Origin: Gemmatimonadota bacterium
Lineage (GTDB): Bacteria; Gemmatimonadota; Gemmatimonadetes; Palauibacterales; Palauibacteraceae
Reading direction: 5' to 3'
NCBI GenBank assembly: GCA_036476995.1
Contig: JAZGCO010000012.1
Coordinates: forward strand, 1 to 33,966
Length of the DNA stretch: 33,966 bases
Of the stretch, positions 1-27,732 are shown piece after piece. Position numbers and translations under genes: made by a program. A model generated the notes under the pieces. It did not search any database, was not told the origin of the DNA, and saw only the letters and a program-made list of their open reading frames with translations. Every line of letters starts with the position of its first letter. The stretch's first letter is position 1.

Positions 1-204
1 AGGATCTGACGCGCGCCGTTTCCTTCATCCAGGACGAGCACGGTATCGGCGGGAGCGGCGCTGACCGTATCGACCGCGATGTCATACTGGTCCGTCTCGT
101 TCCCCTCCGTGTCGAGCTTGCTCACCAGGAGCAGGCGGCGGCCTTCGAGGTGCTGGATCTTGATCGTCGCGACGACGGATCCGACGACCTTGCCGAGATA
201 CACG
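1..204 (-). CDS. BMC vertex (pentamer) protein, EutN/PduN/CcmL family; 3' end truncated by window edge
   Basis: Reverse-complement of 1..204 translates from GTG at 204 as VYLGKVVGSVVATIKIQHLEGRRLLLVSKLDTEGNETDQYDIAVDTVSAAPADTVLVLDEGNGARQI..., a clear paralog of the two other BMC-P ORFs. It abuts the stop of the 205..477 gene. It is not in the ORF track because it runs off the window. Confidence 0.7.
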
Positions 205-477
205 TCAGGCCGTCCTGTGGACATCGTCCACGATTCCGGTAATCGCCAAATCAACGGGGACGAAGAGCTCGGGCATGGCCTGCGCGGCCTCGCGGCTGGC
301 GACGGTGAAGACCAGGCTCCCGGGCCCGGCCTGAGCGGTGGCGTCGGCCGCGACCTGAGCCGTGCCGCGCGGTGCCAGGTCCCGGTCCAAGGGCTGAACC
401 AAGAGGAGTTTGACCCCCTCGAGCCCCTCGTACTTATGGCTGGCCACCACCGTTCCTATCACGCGCGCGAACTTCAT
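205..477 (-). CDS. BMC vertex protein (BMC-P), EutN/PduN/CcmL family
   Basis: 90 aa MKFARVIGTVVASHKYEGLEGVKLLLVQPLD... has the typical EutN/CcmL fold signature. Its stop is adjacent to the GTG start of the next BMC-P gene. Confidence 0.85.
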   Translation of the reverse strand: MKFARVIGTVVASHKYEGLEGVKLLLVQPLDRDLAPRGTAQVAADATAQAGPGSLVFTVASREAAQAMPELFVPVDLAITGIVDDVHRTA

Positions 478-1115
478 GCGGTTTCCACCGCTTGTGTGCC
501 GGCCACGGCCGGTGCGGACGCCACGGACGGTCTGGCGCCGCCGACACGCTCGCTGAACGGCGTGGCGTCAGAGATATTGTCCCAAATCTCGGGATGCAGC
601 TGCGGGATGATCACCTGGTTCACCAGCAGACCAGGTTCGACCGCACCGCTGCCGCTCTCGACGGCTATCTCCACGTCAGCTACGACGCCTGAATAGAGCA
701 CGATTCCCTTGCCGCCGAGACCGTCTGCGAGACGAATCTCGACGAGTTGCACCAGCGCGCTCTTGATGCCCGCGTCGGCGGCATTGATGGCGGCAGCGGC
801 AGTGTTGGTCTCAACGACGCCCAGCGCGTCGGTAGGGGCGGGGGCGCGGCTACCCACGATGGCCTCCACAACCTCCGGGTGAACACTTGGCAGGAACACA
901 TGCCCGAGTACGCTCGAGCCTCCGATAGTACGCCCGGCGGATAGCGCTTCCTCGACGTCTGCCACCTCTCCGCCGACGAGCACCAGGTACCGGCCGGGCT
1001 GAACCGTTCCGGCCCGAATCGTGCCTACCGGGGCCCGCTTCACCATTGCATCCGCGGCCTGAATGCCGGACGCGATGCTGGAGAAGTCGATCAAGGCCAA
1101 GGCCGGTTCGATCAC
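474..1115 (-). CDS. BMC-T shell protein, tandem canonical BMC domains (PduT-like)
   Basis: 213 aa with two repeats of the BMC (Pfam00936-like) motif: IEPALALIDFSSIASGIQAADAMVKRAPV... and ALGVVETNTAAAAINAADAGIKSALVQLVEI... Confidence 0.8.
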   Translation of the reverse strand: MIEPALALIDFSSIASGIQAADAMVKRAPVGTIRAGTVQPGRYLVLVGGEVADVEEALSAGRTIGGSSVLGHVFLPSVHPEVVEAIVGSRAPAPTDALGVVETNTAAAAINAADAGIKSALVQLVEIRLADGLGGKGIVLYSGVVADVEIAVESGSGAVEPGLLVNQVIIPQLHPEIWDNISDATPFSERVGGARPSVASAPAVAGTQAVETA

Positions 1116-1122
1116 GCGCGCG

Positions 1123-2592
1123 CTAAACGATCCGGAAATAGTCTTTGAGGACGCACCGCCGGATGCGGCTGAAGCTGACCGGACTCGTCACTCCCTCACC
1201 GGTGGGACTGGCGATCGTGAACGAGCAGTAGCCCTCGCCGCCGTAGCCCAGGCCATCGAATGAAGCCCCGTTCTTGACGAAGATGCTGCAGTTCATGACG
1301 CGGGCCATGCGGCTCAGGCTGTCGAGGTTCTTCGAGTGCATCACGGCGGTATGACGGAACCCGTGCTCCGCCACCTTGCTGAGGTCGATTCCTTCGTTTG
1401 CGTCCCGGACACGCACCACGGGGTGGACCGGCATCATCTGCTCAGAGAACACGAGCTGATCGTCCCGTTCGACCTCGGCCACGATAAGCCGCACCTCGTC
1501 TCCCGCCTCGATACCTATCGCGCGCAGGAGCACGTTGGCGTTCTGGCCGATGAACTCGCGGTTCATGGTGCCGTGCCGTCCGCGGGGCGGGACTTCCGTG
1601 AAGATCGATGGCTTGAGGCGTTCAAGCTGAGCGGAATCAATCTCGACCGCGCCGTGCCGGCACATGGCTCGCTTCAGGTCGTCGGCGATAGAAGCGACCG
1701 CAAAGGTCTCCTTCTCATCCGTACAAATGATGTTGTTGTCGAAGGACGCGCCACGTACGATGTCGCGTCCGGCCTGCTCGATGTCAGCCGTCTCATCCAC
1801 TACCACCGGCGGATTTCCTGGCCCGCCGCAGATGGCCCGCTTCCCGCTCGCCATCGCAGCCTTCACAACTCCAGCGCCGCCAGTGACCGTAAGGAGATTG
1901 ATGTCTTTGTGGGTCATGAGTCCGTTGGCCGTGTCGATTGTGGGTTCTGCCACGGCCGAGACCAGGTTGGCCGGGCCACCGGCCTCGATGATCGCGTCGT
2001 TAATGAGCTGCACCGTCTTGTTGGAGCACGTCGTGGCTCCGGGGTGAGCGTTGAATAGGACCGCGTTCCCAGCCGAGACCATGCATATCGTGTTCGACAC
2101 CACGGTAGATATCGGATTGGTGCTGGGGATGATCGAGCCGATGAGTCCGTGCGGCGCGTACTCCACCACAGTGAGGCCCCCGTCTCCGGTCCACGCGGTG
2201 GTGTTGAGGGATTCCGGGCCGGGCGACTTGTCGGCGTTGAGGAGCACCTTCTCGATCTTGTCCTCGAAGCGGCCCATCCCTGTTTCCTGCCACGCCTCGT
2301 ACGCCAGTGGCTGCGCGTTCTCGCGCATTGTGCGTCGGACGTGGGCGATCATGCGCTCGCGCACGGAGAGCGGCAGATCCTGAAGCTGGGCGAACGCTTT
2401 CCGCCCGGCGCTCACCGCGCTGTCCACGTCGGGAAACAGGTTGTCTCCGTGCTTGGGAGACGTTGAAGGAGGCGGTGGGGAAGGGCTGATCACGGGTGTC
2501 GGCCGCGGGCCGTGCGCGCCCGCCTCCGGATGATGGAGCTCGGACATGACCCGGTCGATCACGCCCTCAATCTGCGTGTCGGTGATCATCAT
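1123..2592 (-). CDS. CoA-acylating aldehyde dehydrogenase (EutE/PduP-like) with N-terminal encapsulation peptide
   Basis: 489 aa. The aldehyde dehydrogenase core runs to the C-terminus. The N-terminus [19 protein letters not shown] is a predicted amphipathic helix followed by a Pro-rich linker [19 protein letters not shown] 4-nt overlap with the upstream BMC-P stop suggests translational coupling. Confidence 0.85.
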
Positions 2593-2888
2593 CCAACCCC
2601 GGCCTTGTCGTACGTCACCTCGCCGTCCACCTCGAGCGTGTCCACAATGGCCATGATCACTCCATCACACGGCCGGTTCTGGGTCACCTTGGTTTGACGG
2701 GCCGAACTGCCGGTGGCGTACAGCACCACCTCGCCCAGGCCAGCGCCCACAGCGTCCGCCGCGACCAGGTTGCCTCCGGTCTCATTACCCTCGACATCGA
2801 GCTGCTTGAGCAGCAGAAGTTTCAGCCCTTCCAGGGACGGCTCCTTCTGGGACGCTACGACCGTCCCGACCACCTTTCCTACCAGCAT
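2589..2888 (-). CDS. BMC vertex protein (BMC-P), EutN/CcmL family
   Basis: The track ORF 2589..2972 has an unlikely Arg-rich N-terminus. The internal Met [31 protein letters not shown]... matches the other BMC-P N-termini and has GGGAG about 8 nt upstream. That start gives a 99-aa product. Confidence 0.8.
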
Positions 2889-2904
2889 TGGCGGCTCCCT
2901 TCGG

Positions 2905-3228
2905 CTACTTCTTGGCGGCCTTGGCTCCTTCAGCCGACCGGCTGACCGGAAGCGTGTTCTCGACGTTCGCATGCGGACGCGGAATGACGTGGATCGCCAC
3001 GAGCTCGCCGATCTTCTCAGCGCCCCGAGCGCCCGCGTCCACCGCCGCCTTTACGGCGGCCACATCGCCCCGCACAACGGCCGTGACGTACCCGCCTCCG
3101 GTCTTCTCGTACGCAACGAGCTCGACTCTGGCGGCCTTGACCATCGCGTCGGCCGCCTCGACCATCGCCGCGTAGCTCCGGGTCTCGATCATGCCCAGTG
3201 CTTCAATCGCGCCGTACTCTTCAGCCAT
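2905..3228 (-). CDS. BMC-H hexameric shell protein (PduA/EutM-like)
   Basis: 107 aa [71 protein letters not shown]... is the canonical BMC-H signature. An AGGAGG Shine-Dalgarno sits 6 nt upstream of the ATG, the strongest RBS in the locus. Confidence 0.9.
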
Positions 3229-3319
3229 TGTGTCCTCCTGATGACATGGAATGCGCGGTCCTCCCGCGCCGTGTTCGCTCGATCACCTGCTGCATCTCGT
3301 TGCTCCGCACTAGCCCCAG

Positions 3320-3964
3320 CTAGCGCTTCTTGGCCTCGATTTCTCTACCATCGATGCCCTCAATGGCGGCCACGGCCGCTCCGTAGCCCGCCATGATGTC
3401 CTGTTCTTCACCACCCAGGTACACGCGCCCGAAGCTTCCGAACGCGCGAACCTCCAGGATGTTCAGATTGGATGCTTTCTCAGCCTCATTCGCTGCCAGG
3501 GCGGCATATCCGGCCGGTTCGACTTCCAGTACGTAGAGGGTCTGGCCGGCCAGCAGCATGTGGCCGAAGCGCATCCGGTTCACCAGCTGCACCTGATGCG
3601 GGTCGATGTTGCGAATGATCTGGCTCGAGATCACCCGCGGCTTGAGCCGCTCCGTCTCCTCGACGCCCAGTGCTTGGAGGATGGCCGCTCCGGCCGCCCG
3701 GACCTCGGCCTGAATCTCGTGATGCACCTCCAGGAGACCGAACAGCCGCTCCACGATCTGCATCCCGGGACGCACCCGGGTGGACTTGAGTGCGATGTCC
3801 GTGATCCTGTTGACCTCGATGCCCGGGGAGATCTCGATCCACAGCGACGTGTCGCCGGGCAGCGGCAGGAACCCGCGGGCCACCGTGCCGAGGTAAGCCG
3901 CGTGCTGCGGCTGAAGGCTGTCGAGAAAGGCATATGTGCGAAGGTCAATCTGCTTCTGCGTCAT
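3320..3964 (-). CDS. BMC-T shell protein, tandem permuted double-stacking type (CcmP/CsoS1D-like)
   Basis: 214 aa. The N-terminus [55 protein letters not shown]... matches, from memory, the cyanobacterial CcmP sequence (..LRSYVYLDNLQRQHASYIGT...[16 protein letters not shown]...). Its start overlaps the DeoC stop. Confidence 0.75.
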
Positions 3965-4833
3965 GTCTTGGCTCCCTGAACGATCTTCACGCTGGCGCTG
4001 GCGCCGATCCGGCTGGCTCCAGCGGCGATCATCTTCTCTGCATCGGCGAGAGTGCGAATACCTCCGGACGCCTTTACGCCCAGATTCGGCCCGACGACCC
4101 GTCTCATCAGCGCCACGTCCTCTGCGGTCGCTCCCCCCGGCCCGAACCCGGTGGACGTCTTCACGAAGTCACCTCCCGCAACCTTCACGAGCTGGCAGGC
4201 TGCGACTTTCTCCTCGTCGGTAAGCAGCGCGGCCTCGATAATCACCTTGAGAATCGAGCCCCCGGCATGGGCGGCGCGGGCCACCGAGGCGATATCCCGC
4301 TCGACCAGCTCATAGTCCCGGGATTTGAGGGCCCCGACATTGATCACCATATCGACCTCGGTGGCGCCGTCCCGAATCGCCTTCTGGGCCTCGAATACCT
4401 TGGTTTCCGTGGAGGTGGCGCCCAACGGGAAACCGACCACGGTGCACACGCGAACCGGCGAGTCTTTGAGGAGGTCCGAGCAGAGCTTCACGTGCGATGG
4501 ATTGACGCACACCGAGGCGAACTCACATTTCCGGGCCTCGTAGCAGAGCTGCGCGACCTGGTCCTGAGTCGCGTCCGGCTTCAGAAGCGTGTGGTCGATC
4601 AACGGGGCGAGGCTGCCATCGGTCGGAGCCACGCCTAGAGTGGCGGCGATTCGGTCCGCACCGGCCCGAACGACCGGCTGGACACGGTCCACATAGTTCT
4701 GGGCCGAGAGGGCAGGGGCGCGGCCGGGCTGGCCCTGGCTCGGGAGCGTGCCCCCCCGCACGAGGACCAGGACCTCGTGCGTGATCTGCTCAATGATCCG
4801 CTCCAGCGCGGCGTTATCCAGGCTCATGTTCAT
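3961..4833 (-). CDS. deoC: Deoxyribose-phosphate aldolase (DeoC/DERA family) with N-terminal encapsulation-peptide-like extension
   Basis: 290 aa. The DERA core runs from ...[20 protein letters not shown]... with the class I aldolase Lys region. An extra N-terminal helix [25 protein letters not shown] precedes a Gly/Pro linker. Confidence 0.85.
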
Positions 4834-4849
4834 CGTTTGAGGAGCCGGT

Positions 4850-5680
4850 TCATGGTCTCAGAAACCTCTGCTCGATATCCATGATCTTGTTCACGCGGCG
4901 CTCGTGTCTGCCGCCGCCGGCCGGGGTCTCGAGCCATGTCCGGACGATCTGCCGTCCGAGCTGCGGACCGATGAGTCCGGCCCCGAGCGTAAGCACGTTG
5001 GCGTCGTTGTGTTCGCGGCTGTTGACGGCCGTGGCCTCGTCATAGCACATGGCGGCCCTGACCCCGGGAACCTTATTGGCCGCCATGCAGGAGCCGATGC
5101 CGGCGCCATCTACCAAAATGCCGCGCCAGGCGCGGCCCTGAGCTACGAGCTGCGCCGCGGCGAAAGCGAAATCAGGGTAGTCGACGGAGTCGGAACTGTC
5201 GGTGCCGCAATCGATCACCGAGTAGCCAAGCTCCCGGACGTGAGATTTGAGCATCTCCTTCAGCTCGTACCCTCCGTGGTCGGCTCCCAGCGCCACCACT
5301 TTCGCTCCCGTGGCCGCGGGTTTCGGCCCTGAATCGGCGGTGGTCAGCACGGTGGACTGCCGGGCCGGAACAGCGCTCTCTTCGACGACCGAAATCCCTC
5401 TGTTGGCCGCCGCTTCCCGCGCCAGCGGCGAAACGAGCGAACCCGGCGGGATCTCGAGCGTGCCGCCCGCCGGAATGCCCGCCACGTCGGTTTCGGTCAC
5501 CAGTCCCCGCTCTGACCGTCGCTTGGGCCCGCCGCCCGCCGGCCGTGTCCGAATCTGGCCGTACCCCGCCGATCCCGAGACGCCGACCGTGCGCAGCACT
5601 ACGCGCCGCACCATGTCCCTGATTCTCGCTTCCTCCGCCGGTGCCAGGACTCGAGCCTCGCTCATTACCAGGCCCGCCAT
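4850..5680 (-). CDS. Ribose-5-phosphate isomerase B / LacAB-family sugar-phosphate isomerase fused to a ~130-aa N-terminal extension
   Basis: The C-terminal ~150 aa [34 protein letters not shown]...[29 protein letters not shown]...[10 protein letters not shown] is RpiB-family. The N-terminal part begins with a predicted amphipathic helix ([24 protein letters not shown]) and contains a conserved-looking block [40 protein letters not shown]. An alternative start, ATG at 5665, overlaps the TetR stop as TAATG. Confidence 0.8.
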
Positions 5681-6363
5681 TCAAACTGGTCCTCAGCATC
5701 AGCGCCGTTCTCCTCGGCTGTCTGCGGTTCGCCAACCATGACATCGTGGGATGCGCCCGATTTGTAGTGGCTGCGTGCCGCCAAGAGCTCGATGGACGAT
5801 CGCAGCTGGGCCACGGAGGCGTCGAAGGGCTCGAGGGACTCGGCCGCTCGCGCCTGCATGATTCCGCCCTGCGCCACCGCCAGGACGTGATGCGCCAGAG
5901 CCGCCCGGTCCAGGCTGGCCGGAAGACGGTCACCAGCCGCCACCAACCAGGCTAGGACCTGTGCTACCCAGATAGAGAAATACTCCTCGATCAGCTTGCG
6001 CACGCGTGGCATTTGGCCCCCGACCTCCAGCGCCAGGTTGCCGACCGGGCATCCTTGTGTCGAGCCTGAAATCAGCAGCCCGCGGCGATATACCCCGAGC
6101 AACGAGAACACGTGCTCGAGCGGATCGTCCGTCACGCTGTCCGCGACGGCACGCTCGATGATCATCGGCCGCAGCCTATCCAGATGTCGCTGCATTACCG
6201 CCGCCAGAAGATCTTCCTTGCTCGAGAAGAAGTGATACAGACTGCCGCTCTTTACGCCCGCAGTGCGCAGTATTGTCGCCACGCCGGTAGCGTGGTAGCC
6301 GCGCTCCTCGAACACCTGAGCCGCTACCTCTAGAATCCGTTCCTTCGTGTGCTTGGCCATCAT
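5665..6363 (-). CDS. TetR/AcrR-family transcriptional regulator, first gene of the BMC operon
   Basis: The N-terminal helix-turn-helix MAKHTKERILEVAAQVFEERGYHATGVATILRTAGVKSGSLYHFF is the classic TetR_N motif. The track start at 6381 is a TTG inside an upstream palindrome, so the ATG at 6363 (MMAKH) is preferred. Its stop overlaps the RpiB-fusion start. Confidence 0.85.
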   Translation of the reverse strand: MMAKHTKERILEVAAQVFEERGYHATGVATILRTAGVKSGSLYHFFSSKEDLLAAVMQRHLDRLRPMIIERAVADSVTDDPLEHVFSLLGVYRRGLLISGSTQGCPVGNLALEVGGQMPRVRKLIEEYFSIWVAQVLAWLVAAGDRLPASLDRAALAHHVLAVAQGGIMQARAAESLEPFDASVAQLRSSIELLAARSHYKSGASHDVMVGEPQTAEENGADAEDQFEWRAW

Positions 6364-6365
6364 TG

Positions 6366-6385
6366 TTGATTGTCCACTCAATCAA
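6366..6385. promoter_or_regulatory. Perfect inverted repeat TTGATTG-N6-CAATCAA abutting the TetR start, a candidate TetR operator. A TTGACA -35 lies at 6399..6404 on the minus strand.
   Basis: The repeat was read directly from the sequence. On the minus strand, TTGACA is followed about 13-17 nt later by the palindrome, then CA, then ATGATG. This suggests an operator overlapping the -10 region and a short or leaderless transcript. Confidence 0.4.
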
Positions 6386-6542
6386 CTTCTGGGCCATCTG
6401 TCAAGCCCTACGACCGAATTCCCGACAATGTTCCTCGGATGCGCCTCCGAGGATCGACTGAGAGAGCTCCGAGAGGAACGTGACAGACATCCACGACTGG
6501 TGCAAGTGGAACGATCAATCTAATCGCCGGTCAGGAGAGCGG

Positions 6543-7268
6543 TCAGGAGAATAGGTTGCCCTGTTCCGGAGCCGGAAGAATACAGTCGGGAGAGTCGAAC
6601 GAGGTGCGGTTCACACGCGGGTCTACGGCTCGCACCCGAATGAGGTCTGACGGATAGGGCGCGAACAGGTCCCTCACGTCCGCGGGCTCAGTGATAGTGG
6701 GATCCAGCCACCGCTCGTGGTCGGCGGGGTCCAAGATTACCGGCATGCGCCCGTGGATAGGCCGCAAAACATCGTTGGCCCGGGTGGTGAGGATGGTGCA
6801 GCTGTACAGTGGCTGCCCGCTCGGGGCCGTCCAGGAGTCCCAAAGGCCGGCCAAGGCGAAGGGTCGTTCGCCGGCCTGATGGATCCAGTGCGGCTGGCGG
6901 AGGTTTCCCGCCGCCGCCCACTCGTAGAAGCCGTCGGCCGGGATCAGGCAGCGCCGGTGCCGCAGGGGCTCTCGAAAAGCGGGTTTCTCGGCCGCCGTCT
7001 CGGACCGAGCGTTGAAGGTGCTGGCCTGCAACTGGGAGCCCTGGGCCCAGAACGGAACGAGCCCCCAGCGAAGCTCCACCACCTGGCGGGCCGGCTCACT
7101 GCCGGGACCGCCGCCAGTGCCAGGTCCGCCACTAGCCGTACCGGCTCGCACCGCTAACACATCTTGGGTCGGCGCTATGTTGTAGCGAGGCCCGACTTCC
7201 GGTGCCTCCACCTTGAACAACGCCGCCCACTCTTTGGCCGGCGTGGCCAGGGAGAAGCGACCGCACAT
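6543..7268 (-). CDS. yedK: SOS-response-associated peptidase (SRAP/YedK/HMCES family), abasic-site DNA-protein crosslink enzyme
   Basis: The track ORF begins MTVMCGRFSL, and the family requires Cys at position 2 (MCGRF..). The start is therefore placed at the ATG at 7268. The conserved SRAP core is present (..NIAPTQ..., ..WGLVPFW..., ..PADGFYEW...). Confidence 0.8.
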   Translation of the reverse strand: MCGRFSLATPAKEWAALFKVEAPEVGPRYNIAPTQDVLAVRAGTASGGPGTGGGPGSEPARQVVELRWGLVPFWAQGSQLQASTFNARSETAAEKPAFREPLRHRRCLIPADGFYEWAAAGNLRQPHWIHQAGERPFALAGLWDSWTAPSGQPLYSCTILTTRANDVLRPIHGRMPVILDPADHERWLDPTITEPADVRDLFAPYPSDLIRVRAVDPRVNRTSFDSPDCILPAPEQGNLFS

Positions 7269-7399
7269 GACGGTCAACTAACGTTTCTGTGAGTGGAACT
7301 GTCAAACGCACGAAGTGTTGTTAGATTGGATTTGCCGTATGCGGCCAGGGCGCCCGAAGGACGCCGGAAGCCCGGTCTTACGAAAACCGGAGGAAGAGG

Positions 7400-8111: not shown

Positions 8112-8675
8112 ATGACGATGAGCAAGCTGGCTGACGACAAACGCCGCGACTTCGAGCAGGAAGCGCTGGTGCACCTGGACGCCCTGTTCGGCCTGGCTCT
8201 CCGCCTCACCGGCGGTGATGAGCCCCGGGCCCAGGATCTGGTGCAGGACGCCGTTTTGAAGGCGTTCCGTTCGTGGGATAATTTCGAACGGGGCACCAAC
8301 TGCCGGGCCTGGCTGATGACCATTCTCCGCAACACGTTCATCAACGAGTTTCGCAAGCACAAAGCCCGGCCCGTACCGGTCGAGTATGACCTCCTGGCGG
8401 ATCGTCCTTCCTCCGCCGACCTTTTCGTGGCGGATCCCTCGGGGGAACTGTTCGACCGCATGATCGATGGCGACATCGTCCGGGCCGTTCAGGATCTGCC
8501 TGAAGCGTTTCGTATTCCGATCATTCTCTCCGACCTTCAGGGGCTCAGTTACCAGGAGGTCGCCGACCTCATGGACATACCGGTCGGAACCGTGAAATCG
8601 CGCCTTTTTCGGGCCCGAAAGCGGCTGCAGCAGGCTCTGTATGAGTACGGCGTGGAGATGGGGTACGTCCGATGA
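8112..8675 (+). CDS. ECF-type RNA polymerase sigma factor (sigma-70 family, group 4)
   Basis: 187 aa with a sigma-70 region 2 (..DLVQDAVLKAFRSWDNFERGTNCRAWLMTILRNTFINEFRK..) and region 4 (..LSYQEVADLMDIPVGTVKSRLFRARKRLQ..). Confidence 0.85.
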   Translation: MTMSKLADDKRRDFEQEALVHLDALFGLALRLTGGDEPRAQDLVQDAVLKAFRSWDNFERGTNCRAWLMTILRNTFINEFRKHKARPVPVEYDLLADRPSSADLFVADPSGELFDRMIDGDIVRAVQDLPEAFRIPIILSDLQGLSYQEVADLMDIPVGTVKSRLFRARKRLQQALYEYGVEMGYVR

Positions 8676-8968
8676 GACCCTGGCCCTGGCGCCGACGAGG
8701 CTCCCGGGCCCAGACCGGCCCGGTGCCGGACGCGTTCAGCTGCGCTGAATGCCTCGAAGTCCTGTACGAATTTCTGGACGGAGAGTTGGATTCGGCCGAG
8801 CGGCCCCGCGTCAAGGCGCATCTCGACAGCTGTGCAGAGTGCTTCAGGCACCTCAATTTTGAGCAGCGCTTCCTGGATCAACTCCGGTCAGCCGCGGCCC
8901 ACGACGACGTCCGAAGCGAAGGCCTGCGGCTTCGCCTCCTGGAGCTACTGGAGCGCGAGGCGTTCTGA
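8672..8968 (+). CDS. Zinc-binding anti-sigma factor (ZAS family, RsrA/ChrR-like), cytoplasmic
   Basis: The ATGA junction overlaps the sigma-factor stop. It contains the H-x3-C-x2-C ZAS motif (HLDSCAEC) and an upstream C-x2-C (CAEC). It has no TM segment. 98 aa. Confidence 0.7.
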   Translation: MRPWPWRRRGSRAQTGPVPDAFSCAECLEVLYEFLDGELDSAERPRVKAHLDSCAECFRHLNFEQRFLDQLRSAAAHDDVRSEGLRLRLLELLEREAF

Positions 8969-13241: not shown

Positions 13242-13914
13242 CCTTTCCGAACTCATCCTGAGCGGAGAAGGCGGGCTCGAGACGGCTTCCCTCTCACTGG
13301 GGGCCTTTCAATCCAACTGCCACCTCGTGCGGCAGCCCGGATCCACTGAGGCCGTGGTCATCGACCCAGGCGCCGAGCCGGACCGCGTGCTGGAGGCGTT
13401 GAGCCGATGGGGAGCGGTTCCCGCCGCGATCCTCCTCACGCACGCTCACCTGGATCACATCGGAGGCGTCGCGGGTGTCTTGGACCGCTATCCGGTTCCG
13501 GTGTATCTACACGACGAAGACCGGCCGTTGTACGACAATGCCGCTCAGCAGGCGCTGATGTTCGGCCTGGAGATGCAGCAACCGCCGCTGCCCGAGCACT
13601 CCCTGGCGCACGGCCAGGAGCTGAATCTTGCGGGCGTCCGGCTGGAGGTGCGTTTCACACCCGGGCACTCGCCGGGACACGTCGTGTTCGTGGGTCCAGG
13701 ATTGGCGTTCGTGGGAGACTGCGTGTTCGCCGGTTCGATCGGCCGCACGGATCTTCCTGGCGGAAACGCCCTCACGCTATTGACCTCGATCCGCGACCAG
13801 ATCCTGAGTCTTTCACCCGAAACGAAACTTCTGACGGGCCACGGACCGGCCACGACGGTGGCTGTCGAGGCGGCCAGTAACCCGTTCCTGCGGGACACGT
13901 CGTGGGCGACCTGA
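13198..13914 (+). CDS. MBL-fold metallo-hydrolase (glyoxalase II / hydroxyacylglutathione hydrolase-like)
   Basis: Contains THAHLDHIGG (the HxHxDH motif), plus downstream His and Asp ligands (..FTPGHSPGH.., ..GDCVFAGSIGRTD..). The first canonical start overlaps the IscA gene by 44 nt, so the true start is uncertain. Confidence 0.75.
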   Translation: MPREPAAAAPPFRSSLSELILSGEGGLETASLSLGAFQSNCHLVRQPGSTEAVVIDPGAEPDRVLEALSRWGAVPAAILLTHAHLDHIGGVAGVLDRYPVPVYLHDEDRPLYDNAAQQALMFGLEMQQPPLPEHSLAHGQELNLAGVRLEVRFTPGHSPGHVVFVGPGLAFVGDCVFAGSIGRTDLPGGNALTLLTSIRDQILSLSPETKLLTGHGPATTVAVEAASNPFLRDTSWAT

Positions 13915-15032
13915 GCCGAGACCAGGCAGAGGACGCGCAGACGGATGCACAGATCGACGCACCGGCCGAGCCCGGCCCGCAGAACCCGCGGCGGCCCACG
14001 GCGGAACAGACCGCGCGTCTGTCTGAACTGCTGCGCGCCGTCGAGGGGACGGACCGCGTGTACGTGCTCACACACGACAACCCCGACCCCGACGGGATCG
14101 CCTCTTCCGCCGCTCTGGCCTACCTCCTCGAGCACGTGGCCGGCAAGCAGACTTCTGTGCTGTTCGGTGGCATCGTAGGCCGGGCCGAGAACCGGGCTCT
14201 GATGGATGAGCTCGGGATCGAGTTCAGCCGGATGGAAACGACCGAACTGGAGCCCTCCGCGCTGGTGGCCCTGGTGGATACACAGCCTAGAAGCGGCAAC
14301 AACTCGCTTCCCGAGGGCCGGATCGCCACGATCGTGATCGACCACCATCCTGAGACGCCGGCCAGCCGGGCGGCCGCCTTCGTGGATATTCGGCCCGAGT
14401 ACGGCGCCTGCTGCTCGATGATGACGGAGTACCTTCGTATCGCGAAGCTCGAGCCGGACCGCCGCCTGGCCACCGCCCTGTTCTACGGGATCCAGACCGA
14501 GACTATGGATTTGGGCCGAGAGGTCTCAGAGGCGGATGTCAGCAGCAGCCTGTTCCTGTACCCGCGCTCCGACCCGGCGGCTACATCGCGAATCCGTCAC
14601 CCCAGCCTTCCGCTGGCACTGTTCCATGCGATTCACTATGGACTCGAGCACGGGTGGCGCCGGGAAGGGGTGGTCTGCATCCCGTTGGGCCGCCTCGCCT
14701 ACCCCGATCTCGGAGCTCAGCTGGCGGACCTGTTCGTGCGCGGCGTTGGCGTGACCTGGTCGGTAGTGGCGGGACGATACGGCGACCAGTTGTTGCTGTC
14801 TCTGCGAACGTTCGAGCCGACGGCGCACGCGGGAGAGTTGGTCCGCGAGGTGGTGGGCGAACGAGGTTCGGCCGGTGGGCACGGAACGATGGCCGGCGCT
14901 AGCCTGGACGTCCGCACGCTTTCGGAGGCCGAGTACGACACCCTGCTGGAATCGCTATTCGACGACCTTTGCACTGTTCTGGGTGCAGAGTCATCAGACA
15001 GCATCCCGCTCATTGGCAAGGACGAAGGATGA
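13902..15032 (+). CDS. DHH/DHHA1-family phosphoesterase (NrnA-like nanoRNase / pAp phosphatase)
   Basis: DHH motifs ..VLTHDNPDPDGIASS.. and ..IVIDHHPE.., and a DHHA1 region ..GGGHGTMAGAS... The GTG start overlaps the MBL gene. Confidence 0.8.
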   Translation: MGDLSRDQAEDAQTDAQIDAPAEPGPQNPRRPTAEQTARLSELLRAVEGTDRVYVLTHDNPDPDGIASSAALAYLLEHVAGKQTSVLFGGIVGRAENRALMDELGIEFSRMETTELEPSALVALVDTQPRSGNNSLPEGRIATIVIDHHPETPASRAAAFVDIRPEYGACCSMMTEYLRIAKLEPDRRLATALFYGIQTETMDLGREVSEADVSSSLFLYPRSDPAATSRIRHPSLPLALFHAIHYGLEHGWRREGVVCIPLGRLAYPDLGAQLADLFVRGVGVTWSVVAGRYGDQLLLSLRTFEPTAHAGELVREVVGERGSAGGHGTMAGASLDVRTLSEAEYDTLLESLFDDLCTVLGAESSDSIPLIGKDEG

Positions 15033-16333
15033 TCCGGATCGGCCTGACCGGGACGATTGGAGCAGGCAAGAGCGCGGTCGGAAGCCTGTTCGAGTCCTGG
15101 GGAGCGACACGGATCGACGTGGACCACCTGGCGCGCGAGGTCGTGGCGCCTGGGACGAAGGCGCTGGGTGAGATCCGAGATGCCTGGGGCGAGGACGTCA
15201 TGGCTGATGACGGGAGCCTGAACCGGGCCGAACTTCGGCGGCGGGTGTTTGCCGATCCGCGTCAGCGCCTGCGGCTAGAAGAGATCGTCCACCCGGCGAT
15301 CGAAGAACTCCGCCAGCGCCGGACCTCCGAGGCCGCTTCGAGCGGGGCTGAAGTGGTGGTGTGTGAGATCCCGTTGCTGTTCGAGAAAGGGCTGATGGCC
15401 GAGTTCGACGCCATAGTGACTGTCGATGCGGCCTCTGCGGTGCGCCGGGCTCGGGTATTGGAGCACCGAGGCGTGGAAGCCGGCGAGTTTGCGGCCATGG
15501 AAGCGGCTCAGTGGACCGGCGAAGCCAAGCAGAAGGGCGCTGATTACGTCCTTCACAACGAGGGCGAGCTGGATTCGCTCGAGTCTCAGGCCCGGAAGGT
15601 GTGGGAGGCGATTCTGCACTCTGCGCGCGAGCAAACACAGCCCCTGCCTGCCTCGCAGGGCACGGCCGGGAACGGCAGACTGTGGGACGTAGACTTGCAC
15701 ATGCACACCAGTCATTCCCATGACTGCCTCGTGTCGCCGCTCGAGGTCGTCAGCCACGCACGGACAGCCGGCCTCCACCGCATCGCGATCACTGATCACG
15801 ACCAGATCGACGGAGCCTTCGAGGCGCGCGATGCGGCTCCGGAGCTGGTGATCGTGGGCGAAGAAGTGTTGACCTCGGAAGGACTCGATCTGATCGGACT
15901 GTTCCTGTCCCGGCACATCGCGCCCGGCCGCCCTTTTCGTACGGTAGCACAAGAGATTCGCGATCAAGGCGGGATCGTATATCTGCCCCATCCGTTCGAT
16001 TCCCGGCGCGGAACCACGGCGCAGTTTCTGGCTGGGGTTATCGATTGCATCGACGCCGTGGAGGGATTCAACGCCCGCATCCACGACTCGTCCAGGAATC
16101 GGCGGGCACAGGCGTGGGCGGAGAAACATGGGCTTCCCGTCGGCGCGGGCAGTGACGCGCACTTGGGCCGCGAGATCGGGCGGGGAAGGGTGCGCGTGCC
16201 GCCATTCACGGGTGCATCCGACTTCCTGGACTCGCTCCTGGAGGGGTGGGTCGAGGGCCGGCCTTCCAGTCATCTGGTTCACGTTGGCTCGACCTGGGCC
16301 AAGTGGCGAAAGCGCTTTGCCAGATCAGCCTAA
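15029..16333 (+). CDS. coaE: Fusion protein: dephospho-CoA kinase (CoaE) N-terminal domain + PHP-domain phosphoesterase C-terminal domain
   Basis: A CoaE P-loop MIRIGLTGTIGAGKS and core (..EEIVHPAIEE.., ..CEIPLLFE..) are followed by a linker. Then comes a PHP domain, DVDLHMHTSHSHD...ITDHD...YLPHPFD...GSDAH, in the same frame. The ATGA junction with the DHH stop places the start at 15029 rather than the track's 14969. Confidence 0.8.
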   Translation: MIRIGLTGTIGAGKSAVGSLFESWGATRIDVDHLAREVVAPGTKALGEIRDAWGEDVMADDGSLNRAELRRRVFADPRQRLRLEEIVHPAIEELRQRRTSEAASSGAEVVVCEIPLLFEKGLMAEFDAIVTVDAASAVRRARVLEHRGVEAGEFAAMEAAQWTGEAKQKGADYVLHNEGELDSLESQARKVWEAILHSAREQTQPLPASQGTAGNGRLWDVDLHMHTSHSHDCLVSPLEVVSHARTAGLHRIAITDHDQIDGAFEARDAAPELVIVGEEVLTSEGLDLIGLFLSRHIAPGRPFRTVAQEIRDQGGIVYLPHPFDSRRGTTAQFLAGVIDCIDAVEGFNARIHDSSRNRRAQAWAEKHGLPVGAGSDAHLGREIGRGRVRVPPFTGASDFLDSLLEGWVEGRPSSHLVHVGSTWAKWRKRFARSA

Positions 16334-18025: not shown

Positions 18026-18160
18026 ATGACAGATTTCGCGTTGGGATTCATGCTGGTCAGTATTCTCAGCGTCACAGTGCTGGTCGTGTATTGCTATTAC
18101 CGAATTCTCAAACCGGGTTCGTCCGACACCGAAACGGAGAATGCCGATCCAGGAGCCTGA
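18026..18160 (+). CDS. 44-aa single-pass membrane micro-protein downstream of the NSS transporter (candidate small transporter subunit)
   Basis: AGGAGGAG lies 7 nt upstream of the ATG. The product is MTDFALGFMLVSILSVTVLVVYCYYRILKPGSSDTETENADPGA, one hydrophobic helix plus a charged tail. It overlaps the next gene's start by ~20 nt. Coordinates are +/-1 because my reading near 18000 is off by one relative to the ORF track. Confidence 0.45.
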   Translation: MTDFALGFMLVSILSVTVLVVYCYYRILKPGSSDTETENADPGA

Positions 18161-19145
18161 TCTCCGCCGGCAGGAAGGACTACACCGAATTCGGCTGGAG
18201 CTTCTCGCCAGCCGACATGTTGTTCTCACCACGCATCTGAACGCGGACGGCGACGGCGCCGGAAGCGAGGCAGCGGTCGCGCACTATCTGCGCCGCAACG
18301 GCATCGCTTCTACCATCATCAACCCGACTCCCTTCCCGGAGAGTTTCCGGTTTCTTCTGGGGAAGACCGAGGCCTGGACGCCGGCAGACGATGAAGGTCG
18401 GAGCGCCCTCGGTGACGCCGACAAGGTGCTCATCTTGGACACGGCGGAGCCGGCCAGGATTGGCGCCGTGATGGGGCACCTGGAGGGCAAGCACCTCCTC
18501 GTCCTCGACCACCATCCTCCTGTCGGCCCCGACTTCGGTGATCCTGCGGTGCGCGACGCGCGGGCCTGCGCGACGGGAGAACTCGTCTACGATCTCATAA
18601 CCGCCGATGGCGGTGGCGTGACCGAGCAGGAGGCGGCGGGGATCTACGTGGCGATCGTCACGGACACTGGATCGTTCCGCTTCTCCAACACATCCCCCCG
18701 GGCGCTCGAGATCTGCGCCGAGCTGCTCCGGCAGGGCGTAGACCCGGAGGACATGTTCAGACGCCTGTTTGGCCAGGGAAGCCGGGCGGGACTGGCGATC
18801 CTCCAGCGGGCACTGGCCTCTCTCCAGGTGGACGCGGAGCATCCGATCGCCTGGATTCGTTTGACCCACCAGGATCTCGTCGAGTCCGGCGCCAGTTCCG
18901 AAGACCTAGAGGGTATAGTGGACATTCCGCGGCAACTGGCGGGCATCGAGGTAGCCGTGTTCCTCAGAGAGCTGCCGGACGGAAAGACCAAGGCCTCCCT
19001 GCGCTCGAACGGACAGGTCAGCGTCGCCGCCGTGGCCCGGGACCTGGGCGGGGGCGGGCACGAAAAAGCGGCCGGCGTTCTTCTCTCCTGCGGCCTGGAC
19101 GAGGCCGAGCAGCAGGTGTTGGCTCTCCTGAGAGCCGCTCTTTGA
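18141..19145 (+). CDS. Second DHH/DHHA1-family phosphoesterase (NrnA-like)
   Basis: ..LTTHLNADGDGAGSEAA.., ..LVLDHHPP.. and a DHHA1 region ..GGGGHEKAAG... Confidence 0.8.
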   Translation: MPIQEPDLRRQEGLHRIRLELLASRHVVLTTHLNADGDGAGSEAAVAHYLRRNGIASTIINPTPFPESFRFLLGKTEAWTPADDEGRSALGDADKVLILDTAEPARIGAVMGHLEGKHLLVLDHHPPVGPDFGDPAVRDARACATGELVYDLITADGGGVTEQEAAGIYVAIVTDTGSFRFSNTSPRALEICAELLRQGVDPEDMFRRLFGQGSRAGLAILQRALASLQVDAEHPIAWIRLTHQDLVESGASSEDLEGIVDIPRQLAGIEVAVFLRELPDGKTKASLRSNGQVSVAAVARDLGGGGHEKAAGVLLSCGLDEAEQQVLALLRAAL

Positions 19146-25042: not shown

Positions 25043-26236
25043 GTGGAGCCTACGAGAGTCATCCGGCGTCAAGCTAGGAGCGGCCTAATCGCGCAGCAAA
25101 CCGCGGAGCTGTATGCCGGAATCATGTCCGGCACGTCGCATGACGGAATCGATGTGGCACTGGTGGCCCTGAGGGGCGCCGACGAGCGGCCCGACGCTGC
25201 TGAACTGGTCAGCTTCACCTTCACACCCTATGAGGACGGACTGCGGCGGCGGCTGCGATCCCTGGCGGAGAACGAGGCCGGCGTACCCGAGCTGTGCGCC
25301 GTCAACTTCGAACTGGGGGCCGTCTTCGCCGAAGCCTTGACCAAGGCTCTCGCCGTTGCCGGGGTATCACCCGGCGACATGGTGGCCGCCGGATGCCACG
25401 GCCACACGGTCTGGCACGTCCCGCCCGCTTCCGGAGCCGGCGGAGGATCGACGCTGCAGGTGGGTGAAGCAGCGGTCATTGCTGAGCGGACGGGCCTTGC
25501 CGTCGTGGCGGACTTCCGGGTGCGCGATGTAGCAGCGGGCGGGCACGGGGCGCCTCTCGCCCCGTACTTCGACCACCTGCTCTTCCGCTCCGCAGGCGCG
25601 GGACGGGCGATTCAGAACATCGGCGGCATCGCCAACGTGACGGGCCTCCCGGCTGACCCGAGCGCGCGGCCGATGGCTTTCGACACGGGACCGGGGATGG
25701 CCCTCATCGACGCCGCGGTCGAGATCCTTACCGGCGGAGAGGCCACGTTCGACGCTGGCGGAGAGCTGGCGGCTCGGGGAGCGGTACTCGAAGCCGCCGT
25801 GAGCGAGTGGCTGTCCGACCCGTTCTTCGCGCAGCGTCCCCCGCGCAGTACCGGGCGCGAGCGGTTCGGCTCCGGGCGGGCGCGCGCCTGGCTCGAAGCG
25901 AATGCGGACCATGCGTCCGAGGATCTGGTGGCAACTCTGACCGAAGTTACGGCCCGTTCCGTGGCTCAAAGCTACGAGTGGCTAGAATTCGGTGTGGACG
26001 AGGTGTTCGTCTGCGGCGGCGGGGCACACAACCGCCATCTCATGGCGCGTCTCGGGAGCCTTCTGCCCGTTACGCGGGTCAGCGTGCTCGATGACTTGGG
26101 CTGGCCAGTGGACTGCCGGGAGGCCGCGGCCTTCGCGCTACTGGCCCGCCAACACGTCCTCGGCATCCCGGTGGATCTTGGCTGGGCCACCGGCGCCCCG
26201 GCGCCGAGGCTTCTGGGGAAGATGGTTCCGGCGTGA
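25043..26236 (+). CDS. anmK: Anhydro-N-acetylmuramic acid kinase (AnmK)
   Basis: N-terminal signature GIMSGTSHDGIDVALV (family consensus G.MSGTS.DG.D). The start is uncertain between GTG 25043 and ATG 25124. Confidence 0.8.
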   Translation: MEPTRVIRRQARSGLIAQQTAELYAGIMSGTSHDGIDVALVALRGADERPDAAELVSFTFTPYEDGLRRRLRSLAENEAGVPELCAVNFELGAVFAEALTKALAVAGVSPGDMVAAGCHGHTVWHVPPASGAGGGSTLQVGEAAVIAERTGLAVVADFRVRDVAAGGHGAPLAPYFDHLLFRSAGAGRAIQNIGGIANVTGLPADPSARPMAFDTGPGMALIDAAVEILTGGEATFDAGGELAARGAVLEAAVSEWLSDPFFAQRPPRSTGRERFGSGRARAWLEANADHASEDLVATLTEVTARSVAQSYEWLEFGVDEVFVCGGGAHNRHLMARLGSLLPVTRVSVLDDLGWPVDCREAAAFALLARQHVLGIPVDLGWATGAPAPRLLGKMVPA

Positions 26237-27729
26237 TCGGGCCCGATTTACTGGAGCCAGGCCTGGTGTTCCTCCAAGCGCTGCGCTTCGACCAGGGTTC
26301 GCTCGCCTCGGTTCGTGACCGGGCGTTCGAGGCGCTGGAACAGAGCGTGGGCGGCTTCGTCCTGTTTGGCGGGGAAGCGGAATCGGTGGCCAGTCTGACT
26401 GAAGACCTGAGCACTGAAGCTGGCCGGGCGCTGTGGTTCGCTGCGGACCTCGAACGGGGCGCAGGGCAGCAGTTCGCGGGACTCCCGACGCTCCCGCCTC
26501 CCGCTGCCCTGGCGCGGCATCAGGCGCCCGACAACGCGGTGCGTATCGCAGCCGGCCTGACGGCGCGGGATGCCCGCTCCGTAGGGATCAACTGGGCGCT
26601 GGCGCCGGTGCTGGATCTGGACGTGGAGCCAGCCAACCCGATCGTGGGTACCCGCTCCTTCGGCTCCGACCCGGAGCTGGTGGCGCGGCTGGGCGCTGTG
26701 TGGATCGAAGCGTGCCAGGCCAGCGGGGTCGCTGCCTGCGCCAAGCATTTTCCGGGACACGGCCGTACGACGGGAGACTCGCACTCCGAGCTGCCCAGCG
26801 TAGACTCAGCCCGCGAAGACCTGGAGGCGGACTTGACTCCGTTCCGGGCCGTGATCCGGGACGTGGCCTCGGTCATGACCGCTCACGTGGCCTACCCGGC
26901 CCTCGGGTCGTCCGGCCCTGCCACCCTGTCTCCGGCCATCCTCCGGACACTGCTCCGCTCGGAGATGGGATTCGACGGTCTGGTTGTCTCCGACGCCATG
27001 AACATGGCGGGTTTCTCAGGTTCTTCCCCGGCCTCCGCCCTGCTGGCCGGCTGCGATCTTCTGCTCTATCCGACCGATCTGGCGATCGCCGTCCGGGGCC
27101 TGCAGGAGGCCGTCCGGAGATCGGAGCCGCTGGCCCGCCGGCTGCAGGAGGCCACCGCCCGCTCCGCCCGGCAGCTGGCGCGATTCTCGGGTCCCGGGCT
27201 CGCCTCAGCCGGAGGGCCGCAGGCGGATACCTCCTCCGCCGACCTGGACAGTCTAGCGGCGGAGTGCGTGACCCAGGTGGGAGCGCCGGTGGAGCAGATC
27301 CTCGACCCCACGCTGCCTCTGGACGTCTGCGGCGTCTGGGATGACCGAGAGGAACCGGGCCGGCCGGCCTGGGGCGCCGCCTTCAGGGCCGAGCTGGCCG
27401 CCGCCGGGTGGAAGATCCGCGAGCCCAAGTCCGACGCCGAGTCCGCGGCCCGGCCCGAGGCTTACGGCAATACCCAGCGGATCGTGCTGATCGCGGCCAC
27501 GCCGCAGGCCTGGAAGGGCCGCCCGGGACTGTCGGAAGAGGCGGCTGCCGAGGTCGGGCGCCTGCTTGCCACCGGAAACTCCGGCAAGGCGTATCCCATC
27601 ATGTTCGGGCACATCAGAACTCTCGAGAGTCTAGGTATGCCCGGTGCGTCGGCAGCCTGCGCCTGGAGCGCTGAGATCGGCGCAGAGCGCTCCGCCGCGC
27701 GCTGGCTCAACCTACGGGTTCGGGGTTAG
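26233..27729 (+). CDS. nagZ: Beta-N-acetylhexosaminidase NagZ (glycoside hydrolase family 3) with C-terminal extension
   Basis: GH3 motifs ..GINWALAPVLDLD.., ..KHFPGHGRTTGDSH.. and ..VVSDAMNM... A GTGA overlap with the anmK stop. Confidence 0.85.
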   Translation: MIGPDLLEPGLVFLQALRFDQGSLASVRDRAFEALEQSVGGFVLFGGEAESVASLTEDLSTEAGRALWFAADLERGAGQQFAGLPTLPPPAALARHQAPDNAVRIAAGLTARDARSVGINWALAPVLDLDVEPANPIVGTRSFGSDPELVARLGAVWIEACQASGVAACAKHFPGHGRTTGDSHSELPSVDSAREDLEADLTPFRAVIRDVASVMTAHVAYPALGSSGPATLSPAILRTLLRSEMGFDGLVVSDAMNMAGFSGSSPASALLAGCDLLLYPTDLAIAVRGLQEAVRRSEPLARRLQEATARSARQLARFSGPGLASAGGPQADTSSADLDSLAAECVTQVGAPVEQILDPTLPLDVCGVWDDREEPGRPAWGAAFRAELAAAGWKIREPKSDAESAARPEAYGNTQRIVLIAATPQAWKGRPGLSEEAAAEVGRLLATGNSGKAYPIMFGHIRTLESLGMPGASAACAWSAEIGAERSAARWLNLRVRG

Positions 27730-27732
27730 TAA

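Follow-up and report, generated by a model that had tools for sequence, protein, structure and literature searches.

Sugar-phosphate-utilising (SPU) bacterial microcompartments (BMCs) rank among the most widespread metabolosomes and have been proposed to let bacteria live on DNA debris while containing acetaldehyde. The type was named in 2014 (PMC4207490), and a 2021 catalogue (Sutter et al.) listed >280 SPU loci from 26 phyla in seven subtypes (PMC8217296). Dwyer, Sutter and Kerfeld (2024) curated 206 SPU loci and set out a scheme in which deoxyribose-5-phosphate is cleaved to glyceraldehyde-3-phosphate (G3P) plus acetaldehyde, the latter being converted to acetyl-coenzyme A (acetyl-CoA); they measured activity of the purified deoxyribose-5-phosphate aldolase (DERA) of subtype SPU6 on deoxyribose-5-phosphate, demonstrated a stable complex of this DERA with its RpiB-type partner (RPI), and reported that all SPU RPIs carry Asp for the catalytic Cys, the SPU6 RPI being essentially inactive on ribose-5-phosphate (PMC11585597). 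In a 2025 preprint, Hodarchaeales SPU-type shells were reconstituted and cargo recruitment was found to need encapsulation peptides (PMC12747264). Here, we describe an SPU-type operon at the start of a 33,966-nucleotide stretch of DNA from a Gemmatimonadota bacterium (GCA_036476995.1, contig JAZGCO010000012.1, positions 1 to 33,966 of the forward strand; “the window” hereafter). An earlier reading of the window from its letters (the sequence-only reading) had described the class as defined by comparative genomics alone, with no substrate demonstrated; the studies of 2024 and 2025 overtake that statement (PMC11585597, PMC12747264), although it still holds that no native SPU compartment has been purified and no substrate established in vivo.

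Profile searches with Pfam and NCBIfam models supported all ten open reading frames (ORFs) of the operon above curated cut-offs; six of these encode shell proteins, three cargo proteins and one a regulator (Table 1). Three PF00936-type genes (the hexamer BMC-H and the trimers BMC-Ts and BMC-Tdp) and three PF03319 genes (the pentamers BMC-P1 to BMC-P3) lie within 4 kb, marking a BMC locus, and a DeoC-type DERA (PF01791), the enzyme unique to SPU, is encoded within it, as is the acylating aldehyde dehydrogenase (AldDH; PF00171) that SPU loci carry. The BMC-P triplet expected of SPU loci is also present, its third copy being complete on the longer contig L081 (see below). The sequence-only reading had proposed an SPU-class BMC in which DERA, an acylating AldDH and a member of the RpiB family accompany a full set of shell proteins, encoded by ten consecutive, tightly coupled minus-strand genes; the BMC-domain and enzyme calls bear this out throughout, and the chemistry that it suggested, from deoxyribose-5-phosphate via G3P and acetaldehyde to acetyl-CoA, is the published SPU working model (PMC11585597). 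Genes are transcribed in the order TetR, RpiB-like protein, DERA, BMC-Tdp, BMC-H, BMC-P1, AldDH, BMC-Ts, BMC-P2, BMC-P3. Junctions read from the sequence include 4-nt ATGA overlaps (DERA/BMC-Tdp, BMC-P1/AldDH and BMC-Ts/BMC-P2), an overlap at TetR/RPI of 16 nt, or of TAATG if RPI begins at its alternative start (5665), gaps of 1, 7, 16 and 16 nt, and one 91-nt gap ahead of BMC-H. This last gap was considered as a structured RNA and rejected, its folding being no better than that of shuffled sequence (z = -0.67); scanning the entire window for Rfam families and tRNAs gave no matches. Taken together, the locus is probably a TetR-controlled operon for an SPU-type metabolosome that degrades deoxyribose-5-phosphate with a minimal core.

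To place the operon among its relatives, 185,579 species genomes were scanned for DERA (>535 confirmed matches), and the ten proteins were mapped onto 80 retrieved loci (designated L001 onward). Nearest by DERA were metagenome-assembled genomes (MAGs) of Gemmatimonadota (94%, 87% and 81% identical). The window's own gene order, RPI-DERA-Tdp-H-P-AldDH-Ts-P-P (type A), was found in ~24 loci from Gemmatimonadota, Anaerolineae/Chloroflexia, Holophagae, Thermoanaerobaculales, Eisenbacteria and others; because it recurs in several phyla, the arrangement is not due to chance. A second order, RPI-DERA-P-AldDH-H-Tdp-P-P without BMC-Ts (type B), occurred chiefly in Anaerolineales/Chloroflexia MAGs. The AldDH match was split over three frames in L021 (12211-13680) and L068, through frameshifts or sequencing errors, so that decay may be under way in some copies of the cluster. 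For the window itself, a decaying or non-functional relic is barely credible: the spread of one cluster over several phyla does imply horizontal transfer, and the AldDH of L021 is frameshifted, but here all ten ORFs are intact and translationally coupled, catalytic residues are kept, and the GC content of the operon (63-67%) is in line with the rest of the window.

The two enzymes of the proposed pathway are conventional in their cores. DERA aligns end to end with solved DERAs over residues 74-289 (best Protein Data Bank [PDB] match 6D33, E = 1e-86), the alignment reading as ~65% identity in this core. Its catalytic residues Asp161, Lys225 and Lys254, which correspond by spacing to D102, K167 and K201 of Escherichia coli and to D165, K229 and K258 of the SPU6 paper, were invariant in 23 orthologs. 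AldDH, whose catalytic Cys290 was invariant across loci, found its best PDB matches in the BMC AldDH 4C3S (E = 2e-118) and PduP 5JFL. DERA and AldDH thus both retain all catalytic residues. Each cargo protein also carries a predicted N-terminal encapsulation helix: at residues 6-25 in DERA (window 4759-4818), within an extension (residues 1-73) conserved in orthologs; at 14-31 in RPI (window 5588-5641), where the AlphaFold2 (AF2) model also predicts it (mean predicted local distance difference test [pLDDT] score 80); and at 3-19 in AldDH (window 2536-2586), followed by a Pro-rich linker in an extension conserved across loci. All three helices precede a Gly/Pro-rich linker, have hydrophobic moments of 0.54-0.59, near the maximum of each protein, and are conserved across phyla. 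Solved non-BMC homologs align only from residues 74 (DERA), 118 (RPI) and 37-51 (AldDH), leaving the helices outside, and the DERA extension matches the ~70-residue extension with an amphipathic helix that marks SPU DERAs and is absent from non-BMC DERA. The sequence-only reading had made its case depend on encapsulation peptides in homologs, and conserved N-terminal amphipathic extensions were found on all three enzymes.

The same reading had noted that position 1 cuts the operon inside a third BMC-P gene, and had presumed that a PduL-type phosphotransacylase (PTAC) and an alcohol dehydrogenase (AlcDH) lay past this edge. The left flank could be read from L081 (JAZHCF012126039.1 of GCA_044345325.1; 35,193 bp), which encodes an identical RpiB-like protein and extends 363 bases beyond position 1. 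The rest of BMC-P3 is found there (90 amino acids when complete; L081 15478-15750), with its stop 70 nt to the left of position 1; next come a 147-nt spacer and the C-terminus of a convergent gene, at which the L081 contig ends. The 47 residues of this gene match the C-terminus of the triosephosphate isomerase (TPI) encoded at the same place in the close relative L002. The operon terminates at BMC-P3, and the presumed adjacent recycling genes are refuted. That the locus encodes a canonical full metabolosome, its operon continuing leftward into PTAC and AlcDH genes, is therefore very improbable, even though Pdu, Eut, SPU1, SPU4 and SPU7 do encode PTAC/AlcDH beside their shell genes (PMC11585597). 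No PTAC or AlcDH gene, and hence no Pdu/Eut-type core in which both are encapsulated and encoded with the shell genes, was found on the 35-kb contig; the other 27 kb of the window encode unrelated functions, with no further BMC, PTAC or AlcDH genes. The flanks of the 24 type A loci (78 ORFs) likewise held TPI and class II aldolase, with no recurrent PTAC, Fe-dependent or other AlcDH, or PduS among the best 25 of 70 families. Moreover, only SPU1, SPU4 and SPU7 typically have PTAC, and these are without BMC-Tdp, while loci without PTAC usually carry BMC-Tdp (PMC11585597).

TPI is encoded convergently downstream of the type A clusters in L002, L004, L008, L025 and L023 (5-6 matching ORFs overall), and class II aldolase occurs three times in type A flanks. 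The TPI beside the operon carries no encapsulation peptide. At its end in L081 (15849-15921, ~170-240 nt left of position 1), a 24-nt unit, GTTAGACAGCTGCGGCGATAACCA, stands three times in tandem, copying the last seven codons and the stop of TPI; this could be a true micro-duplication or an assembly artefact. In one Gemmatimonadota relative (L003, 7083-9479), ComEC, a DNA-uptake channel, replaces TPI as the convergent gene, a single occurrence that is suggestive of DNA scavenging.

Shell proteins of the operon have close solved relatives. BMC-H is nearest to a BMC-H of Haliangium ochraceum (5DJB/5V74; E = 3e-39), and BMC-Tdp matches CcmP (4HT5; E = 2e-90), HO-5816 (E = 9e-73) and CsoS1D (E = 2e-63). 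In BMC-Ts, the Cys that serves PduT as Fe-S ligand is replaced by Gln39 (codon at window 999-1001), vCPGk reading vQPGr in comparison with 3NWG and 3PAC. Gln or His occupies this position in every type A locus, and two Bacillota SPU loci of another architecture retain CPGK. The change fits the absence of PduS, without which there would be no electron conduit across the shell in this lineage; since PTAC and AlcDH are absent as well, NAD+/NADH and CoA/acetyl-CoA would have to cross the shell. It has been suggested that PTAC-less loci rely on the large gated pore of BMC-Tdp (PMC11585597), and this pore is the most plausible cofactor route here also.

The RpiB-like protein is where the assignment of function is least straightforward. 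Behind the encapsulation helix it consists of a mini-domain (residues 59-101; window 5378-5506) and an RpiB domain (128-273; window 4862-5299). Membership of the RpiB family (PF02502), as put forward in the sequence-only reading, stands; a canonical isomerase it is not, for Asp191 stands where Clostridium thermocellum RpiB (3PH3, 3HE8) has its catalytic Cys and Ala193 where it has the adjacent Thr, as in all SPU RPIs. The motif reads Asp-Gly-Ala-Gly-Ile-Gly-Ser-Cys where functional RpiB has Cys-Gly-Thr-Gly-x-Gly. Functional RpiB carries either Cys66 with Thr68 (E. coli numbering) or a Glu75 of the Mycobacterium tuberculosis type; the former pair is replaced here, and Ser sits at what we take to be the Glu75 position. 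The combination of Cys-to-Asp with an N-terminal encapsulation peptide is that of the SPU RpiB-type proteins. Automatic annotation will nonetheless call the protein RpiB, since its score of 145 passes the rpiB equivalog cut-off of 139; all matches to the NCBIfam LacA/B and erythrulose-4-phosphate isomerase models fell below cut-off. Ten pocket residues (Asp134, His135, Asp191, Ala193, Ser197, His224, Asn225, Arg258, His259 and Arg262) were invariant in 24 orthologs of both architectures, and Cys198 was conserved in 22 of the 24. Such conservation suggests a ligand pocket that has been maintained, and not a pseudoenzyme in decay.

This pocket bears on two other accounts of the chemistry. In the first, a different, possibly rare sugar phosphate is the true substrate, and the RpiB-like protein is an active isomerase with Asp191 as its base, working before or after the DeoC-family aldolase. 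Ten invariant residues suggest that the pocket is under selection rather than decaying, members of the RpiB family take C4 to C6 sugar phosphates as substrates, and Dwyer et al. left the possibility standing (PMC11585597). Against this, the DERA core is canonical and far above its equivalog cut-off, SPU6 DERA does use deoxyribose-5-phosphate (PMC11585597), and neighbouring genes suggest no candidate substrate, so that we regard another substrate as unlikely. In the second, the pathway runs in reverse as an aldehyde sink: AldDH would reduce acetyl-CoA, disposing of NADH, DERA would condense acetaldehyde with G3P, and the RpiB-like protein would process the product, storing carbon as sugar phosphate. 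Both DERA and acylating AldDH are reversible, the isomerase would gain a role, and such a sink was proposed for Atribacteria DERA/RPI BMC loci (Nobu 2016, as summarised in PMC6281690). However, 2-deoxyribose-5-phosphate is without the 2-hydroxyl, which precludes aldose-ketose isomerisation, SPU RPI was inactive on ribose-5-phosphate in vitro (PMC11585597), and the proposal was framed for strictly fermentative anaerobes, with no sign of fermentation in the window; we hold this direction to be improbable. Rather than a ribose-5-phosphate isomerase, the RpiB-like protein is most likely a DERA-binding assembly or scaffold subunit.

The mini-domain offers a possible handle on that role. It comprises ~40 residues (consensus LVTxxDVxxVPxGGxLxVPxGALVTPLARQxAxER) between the helix and the isomerase domain of type A RPIs, and SPU6-type RPIs are without it. 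AF2 models it as a compact beta-alpha-beta-beta-alpha-beta unit amid disorder (pLDDT 88-95 in the full-length protein, ~80 in isolation). Among the best 120 homologs it occurs once, twice or three times in tandem (e.g., P0005, P0010), with a period of 79 residues in 405-amino-acid Anaerolineales proteins. A search with a 51-residue module against 1.8 billion representatives returned 28 matches, several of them repetitive junk (P0121, P0131, P0135) and many from truncated or chimeric metagenomic gene calls; the useful outcome was two class II aldolases only, which carry the mini-domain N-terminally (P0132) and internally (P0126). Its profile found nothing better than E = 0.8 among PDB sequences, to an E2 subunit-binding region. 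Sequence searches with its members gave weak hints: eight of 17 members matched the C-terminal 38 positions of PF15953, which we take to be the PduM family (best E = 7.8e-5, below the gathering score), and there was a match to the E3-binding domain (best E = 0.004). PduM links core and shell and has no known homologs outside Pdu (PMC12108088). A part for the mini-domain in docking or scaffolding is an attractive, unproven idea that agrees with the published suggestion that SPU RPI serves packaging (PMC11585597). More specifically, and tentatively, the RpiB-like protein may serve core assembly as a modular scaffold, built from a helix, one to three undescribed mini-domains and a DERA-binding pseudo-isomerase, with a logic like that of CcmM/CsoS2 in carboxysomes. 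If that were so, the mini-domain would be a portable module, common to different BMC types, for docking to cargo or shell.

The deoxyribose-5-phosphate metabolosome that we favour would then work as follows. Deoxyribose-5-phosphate from the breakdown of DNA or nucleosides would enter the shell, with the pore of BMC-H or the gated one of BMC-Tdp as the probable route, and be cleaved by DERA to G3P and acetaldehyde. Volatile and toxic, acetaldehyde would be trapped in the shell and oxidised by AldDH to acetyl-CoA, yielding NADH. G3P would leave for glycolysis, with a cytosolic TPI encoded convergently just after the operon, and CoA/acetyl-CoA and NAD+/NADH would cross the shell, most plausibly through the BMC-Tdp pore. 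Four points weigh against this scheme. All of the biochemistry comes from SPU6, which differs in gene order, has a C-terminal AldDH peptide and is without BMC-Ts and the RPI mini-domain. The supply of deoxyribose-5-phosphate is an assumption, as the window encodes no nucleoside phosphorylase, phosphopentomutase, deoxyribokinase or nucleoside transporter. It is a hypothesis that cofactors pass through BMC-Tdp, and a PTAC or AlcDH could be encoded elsewhere in the genome. Lastly, the invariance of the RpiB-like pocket (24 orthologs, 72 homologs) argues for a ligand-binding or catalytic role that the scaffold idea leaves unexplained.

The operon begins with TetR (start at 6363 by the gene call on L081), and orthologous TetR genes head at least six related loci; loci of the Gemmatimonadota clade have TetR as their upstream regulator, other loci GntR/UTRA. 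A perfect palindrome with a single exact match in the window immediately precedes the TetR ATG, and a TTGACA hexamer stands 13 nt further upstream, both located by eye and by repeat search. TTGACA together with an AT-rich TGAxTGA...TCAA was found upstream of TetR in six of seven related TetR loci (L001, L002, L004, L006, L007 and L018); L003 and L008 were without this arrangement. A second AT-rich site at ~6505-6525, ~130 nt further upstream, holds a similar element, ATTGATCGTTCCAC, common to L002 and L003. A sigma-70 consensus scan returned no promoter, and its single terminator-like hairpin falls within the coding sequence of RPI. The region from palindrome to hexamer looks like an autoregulated promoter/operator, the palindromic site or sites probably forming one or two TetR operators, and TetR probably represses its own operon at the palindrome overlapping the promoter.

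Table 1. Features of the SPU-type operon in the window (all on the minus strand), with the profile match or sequence element on which each call is based.
Feature	Position (strand)	Product	Basis
BMC-P3	1-203 (-)	Third pentamer/vertex shell gene; GTG start at 203; cut by window edge	PF03319, E = 1.2e-17
BMC-P2	205-477 (-)	Pentamer shell protein, 90 aa	PF03319, E = 2.8e-24
BMC-Ts	474-1115 (-)	Tandem-domain PduT-like trimer, 213 aa	Two PF00936 domains, E = 2.6e-34
AldDH	1123-2592 (-)	CoA-acylating aldehyde dehydrogenase, 489 aa	NF011927, 614 bits (cut-off 403)
BMC-P1	2589-2888 (-)	Pentamer shell protein, 99 aa	PF03319, E = 1.4e-28
BMC-H	2905-3228 (-)	Sole hexamer shell protein, 107 aa	PF00936, E = 1.8e-30
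BMC-Tdp	3320-3964 (-)	CcmP-like double-stacking trimer, large gated pore, 214 aa	NCBIfam CcmP NF053796, 365 bits (cut-off 340)
DERA	3961-4833 (-)	Deoxyribose-5-phosphate aldolase, 290 aa	TIGR00126, 280 bits (cut-off 117)
RpiB-like protein	4850-5680 (-)	RPI, 276 aa	PF02502, E = 6e-53
TetR	5665-6363 (-)	TetR-family regulator, LmrA/YxaF-type C-terminal domain, 232 aa	PF00440, E = 3e-17; PF21993, E = 1e-13
Candidate promoter/operator	6366-6404 (-)		TTGACA, 6399-6404; palindrome TTGATTG-N6-CAATCAA, 6366-6385

Beyond the operon, several neighbouring genes deserve mention. A gene for an SRAP protein (YedK-type abasic-site sensor) lies directly upstream on the same strand (6543-7277, minus); SRAP was seen in one of 34 ORFs sampled upstream of related loci and is probably outside the system. 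An extracytoplasmic function (ECF) sigma factor and zf-HC2 anti-sigma pair (8112-8968, plus) is followed downstream by an M42 aminopeptidase, a DtxR/FeoA-type metal regulator and a thioredoxin-reductase-like flavoprotein. Two DHH/DHHA1 phosphoesterases (NrnA/RecJ-like) and an unusual dephospho-CoA kinase (CoaE), fused to a PHP phosphoesterase domain (13902-15032, 14969-16333 and 18141-19145, plus) might relate to nucleotide or CoA turnover, with no established BMC link. Finally, 25043-31433 (plus) holds an apparent peptidoglycan-recycling cluster of AnmK, a GH3 (NagZ-like) hydrolase, a sodium:solute symporter and a large N-acetylmuramoyl-L-alanine amidase-domain protein.

The SPU type had entered the literature through the surveys of 2014 and 2021 and was characterised in part by the work of 2024 and 2025, and the locus opens no new category; its special features (minimal core, BMC-Ts without the Fe-S ligand, TetR and the RPI mini-domain) are variations inside SPU. 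Its interest lies in being a compact Gemmatimonadota example, ten genes in ~6.4 kb under TetR control without PTAC, AlcDH, PduS or an Fe-S BMC-Ts, and as such it is suited to two questions in the field: how recycling or exchange of CoA and NAD+ works without an encapsulated recycling enzyme, and what the RpiB-like protein does. As in Eut and Pdu compartments, a signature enzyme would make an aldehyde within the shell for an EutE/PduP-type acylating AldDH to consume, and cargo carries amphipathic peptides; unlike in these, the signature enzyme is a different one that is not B12-dependent, PTAC and AlcDH are missing and BMC-Tdp is present. Haliangium ochraceum (HO) supplies the nearest solved BMC-H (HO-5815) and the second-nearest BMC-Tdp (HO-5816), and shares the BMC-P triplet and single BMC-H, but its main locus is without DERA and RPI and it has two BMC-Tdp paralogs. 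Hodarchaeales SPU loci have in common with the window a DERA and AldDH core, the same proposed route from deoxyribose-5-phosphate to acetyl-CoA and peptide-recruited cargo; their flavoprotein-DERA fusion, PTAC, NADH dehydrogenase (MNdh/PduS), BMC-Ts with a CPGK Fe-S motif and DNA-binding K/R-rich tail on a BMC-P have no counterpart here (PMC12747264).

Within SPU, the only biochemically characterised enzymes are those of SPU6 from Chloroflexi bacterium GWB2_54_36, with which the locus shares the DERA extension and catalytic triad, the RPI Cys-to-Asp change and N-terminal encapsulation peptide, and a PTAC-less minimal core with one BMC-H, one BMC-Tdp and three BMC-P. The encapsulation peptide of AldDH is C-terminal in SPU6 and N-terminal in all other subtypes (PMC11585597). 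The window's AldDH ends ...KDYFRIV without an extension, its helix being N-terminal; the C-terminal type was seen in L040, L045, L047 and L048. Since the helix of type B AldDHs is C-terminal, type B is equated with SPU6, and the window's locus is not: SPU6-like loci differ from it in their type B gene order, divergent AldDH with a C-terminal peptide, lack of BMC-Ts and RPI without the mini-domain, and their BMC-Tdp is placed in another clade than CcmP (PMC11585597). The presence of BMC-Tdp and absence of PTAC exclude SPU1, SPU4 and SPU7, and the presence of RPI excludes SPU5, in which RPI is absent and BMC-Tdp is CsoS1D-like. As the CcmP-like BMC-Tdp is assigned by the published work to SPU2/SPU3, the locus is filed, on its sequence features, as SPU2/SPU3-like, a joint label because telling the two apart takes a catalogue hidden Markov model or colour-clade assignment. 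It departs from these subtypes in having no PduS homolog, which the 2024 paper lists in all types but SPU6 (PMC11585597), in its TetR in place of a GntR/UTRA regulator and, from SPU3, in its separate DERA and RPI, which are fused there. With SPU2/SPU3 it shares adjacent DERA and RPI, the N-terminal AldDH peptide, the BMC-P triplet, at least one BMC-Ts, the CcmP-like BMC-Tdp, the absence of PTAC and, in some loci, TPI and class II aldolase close by.

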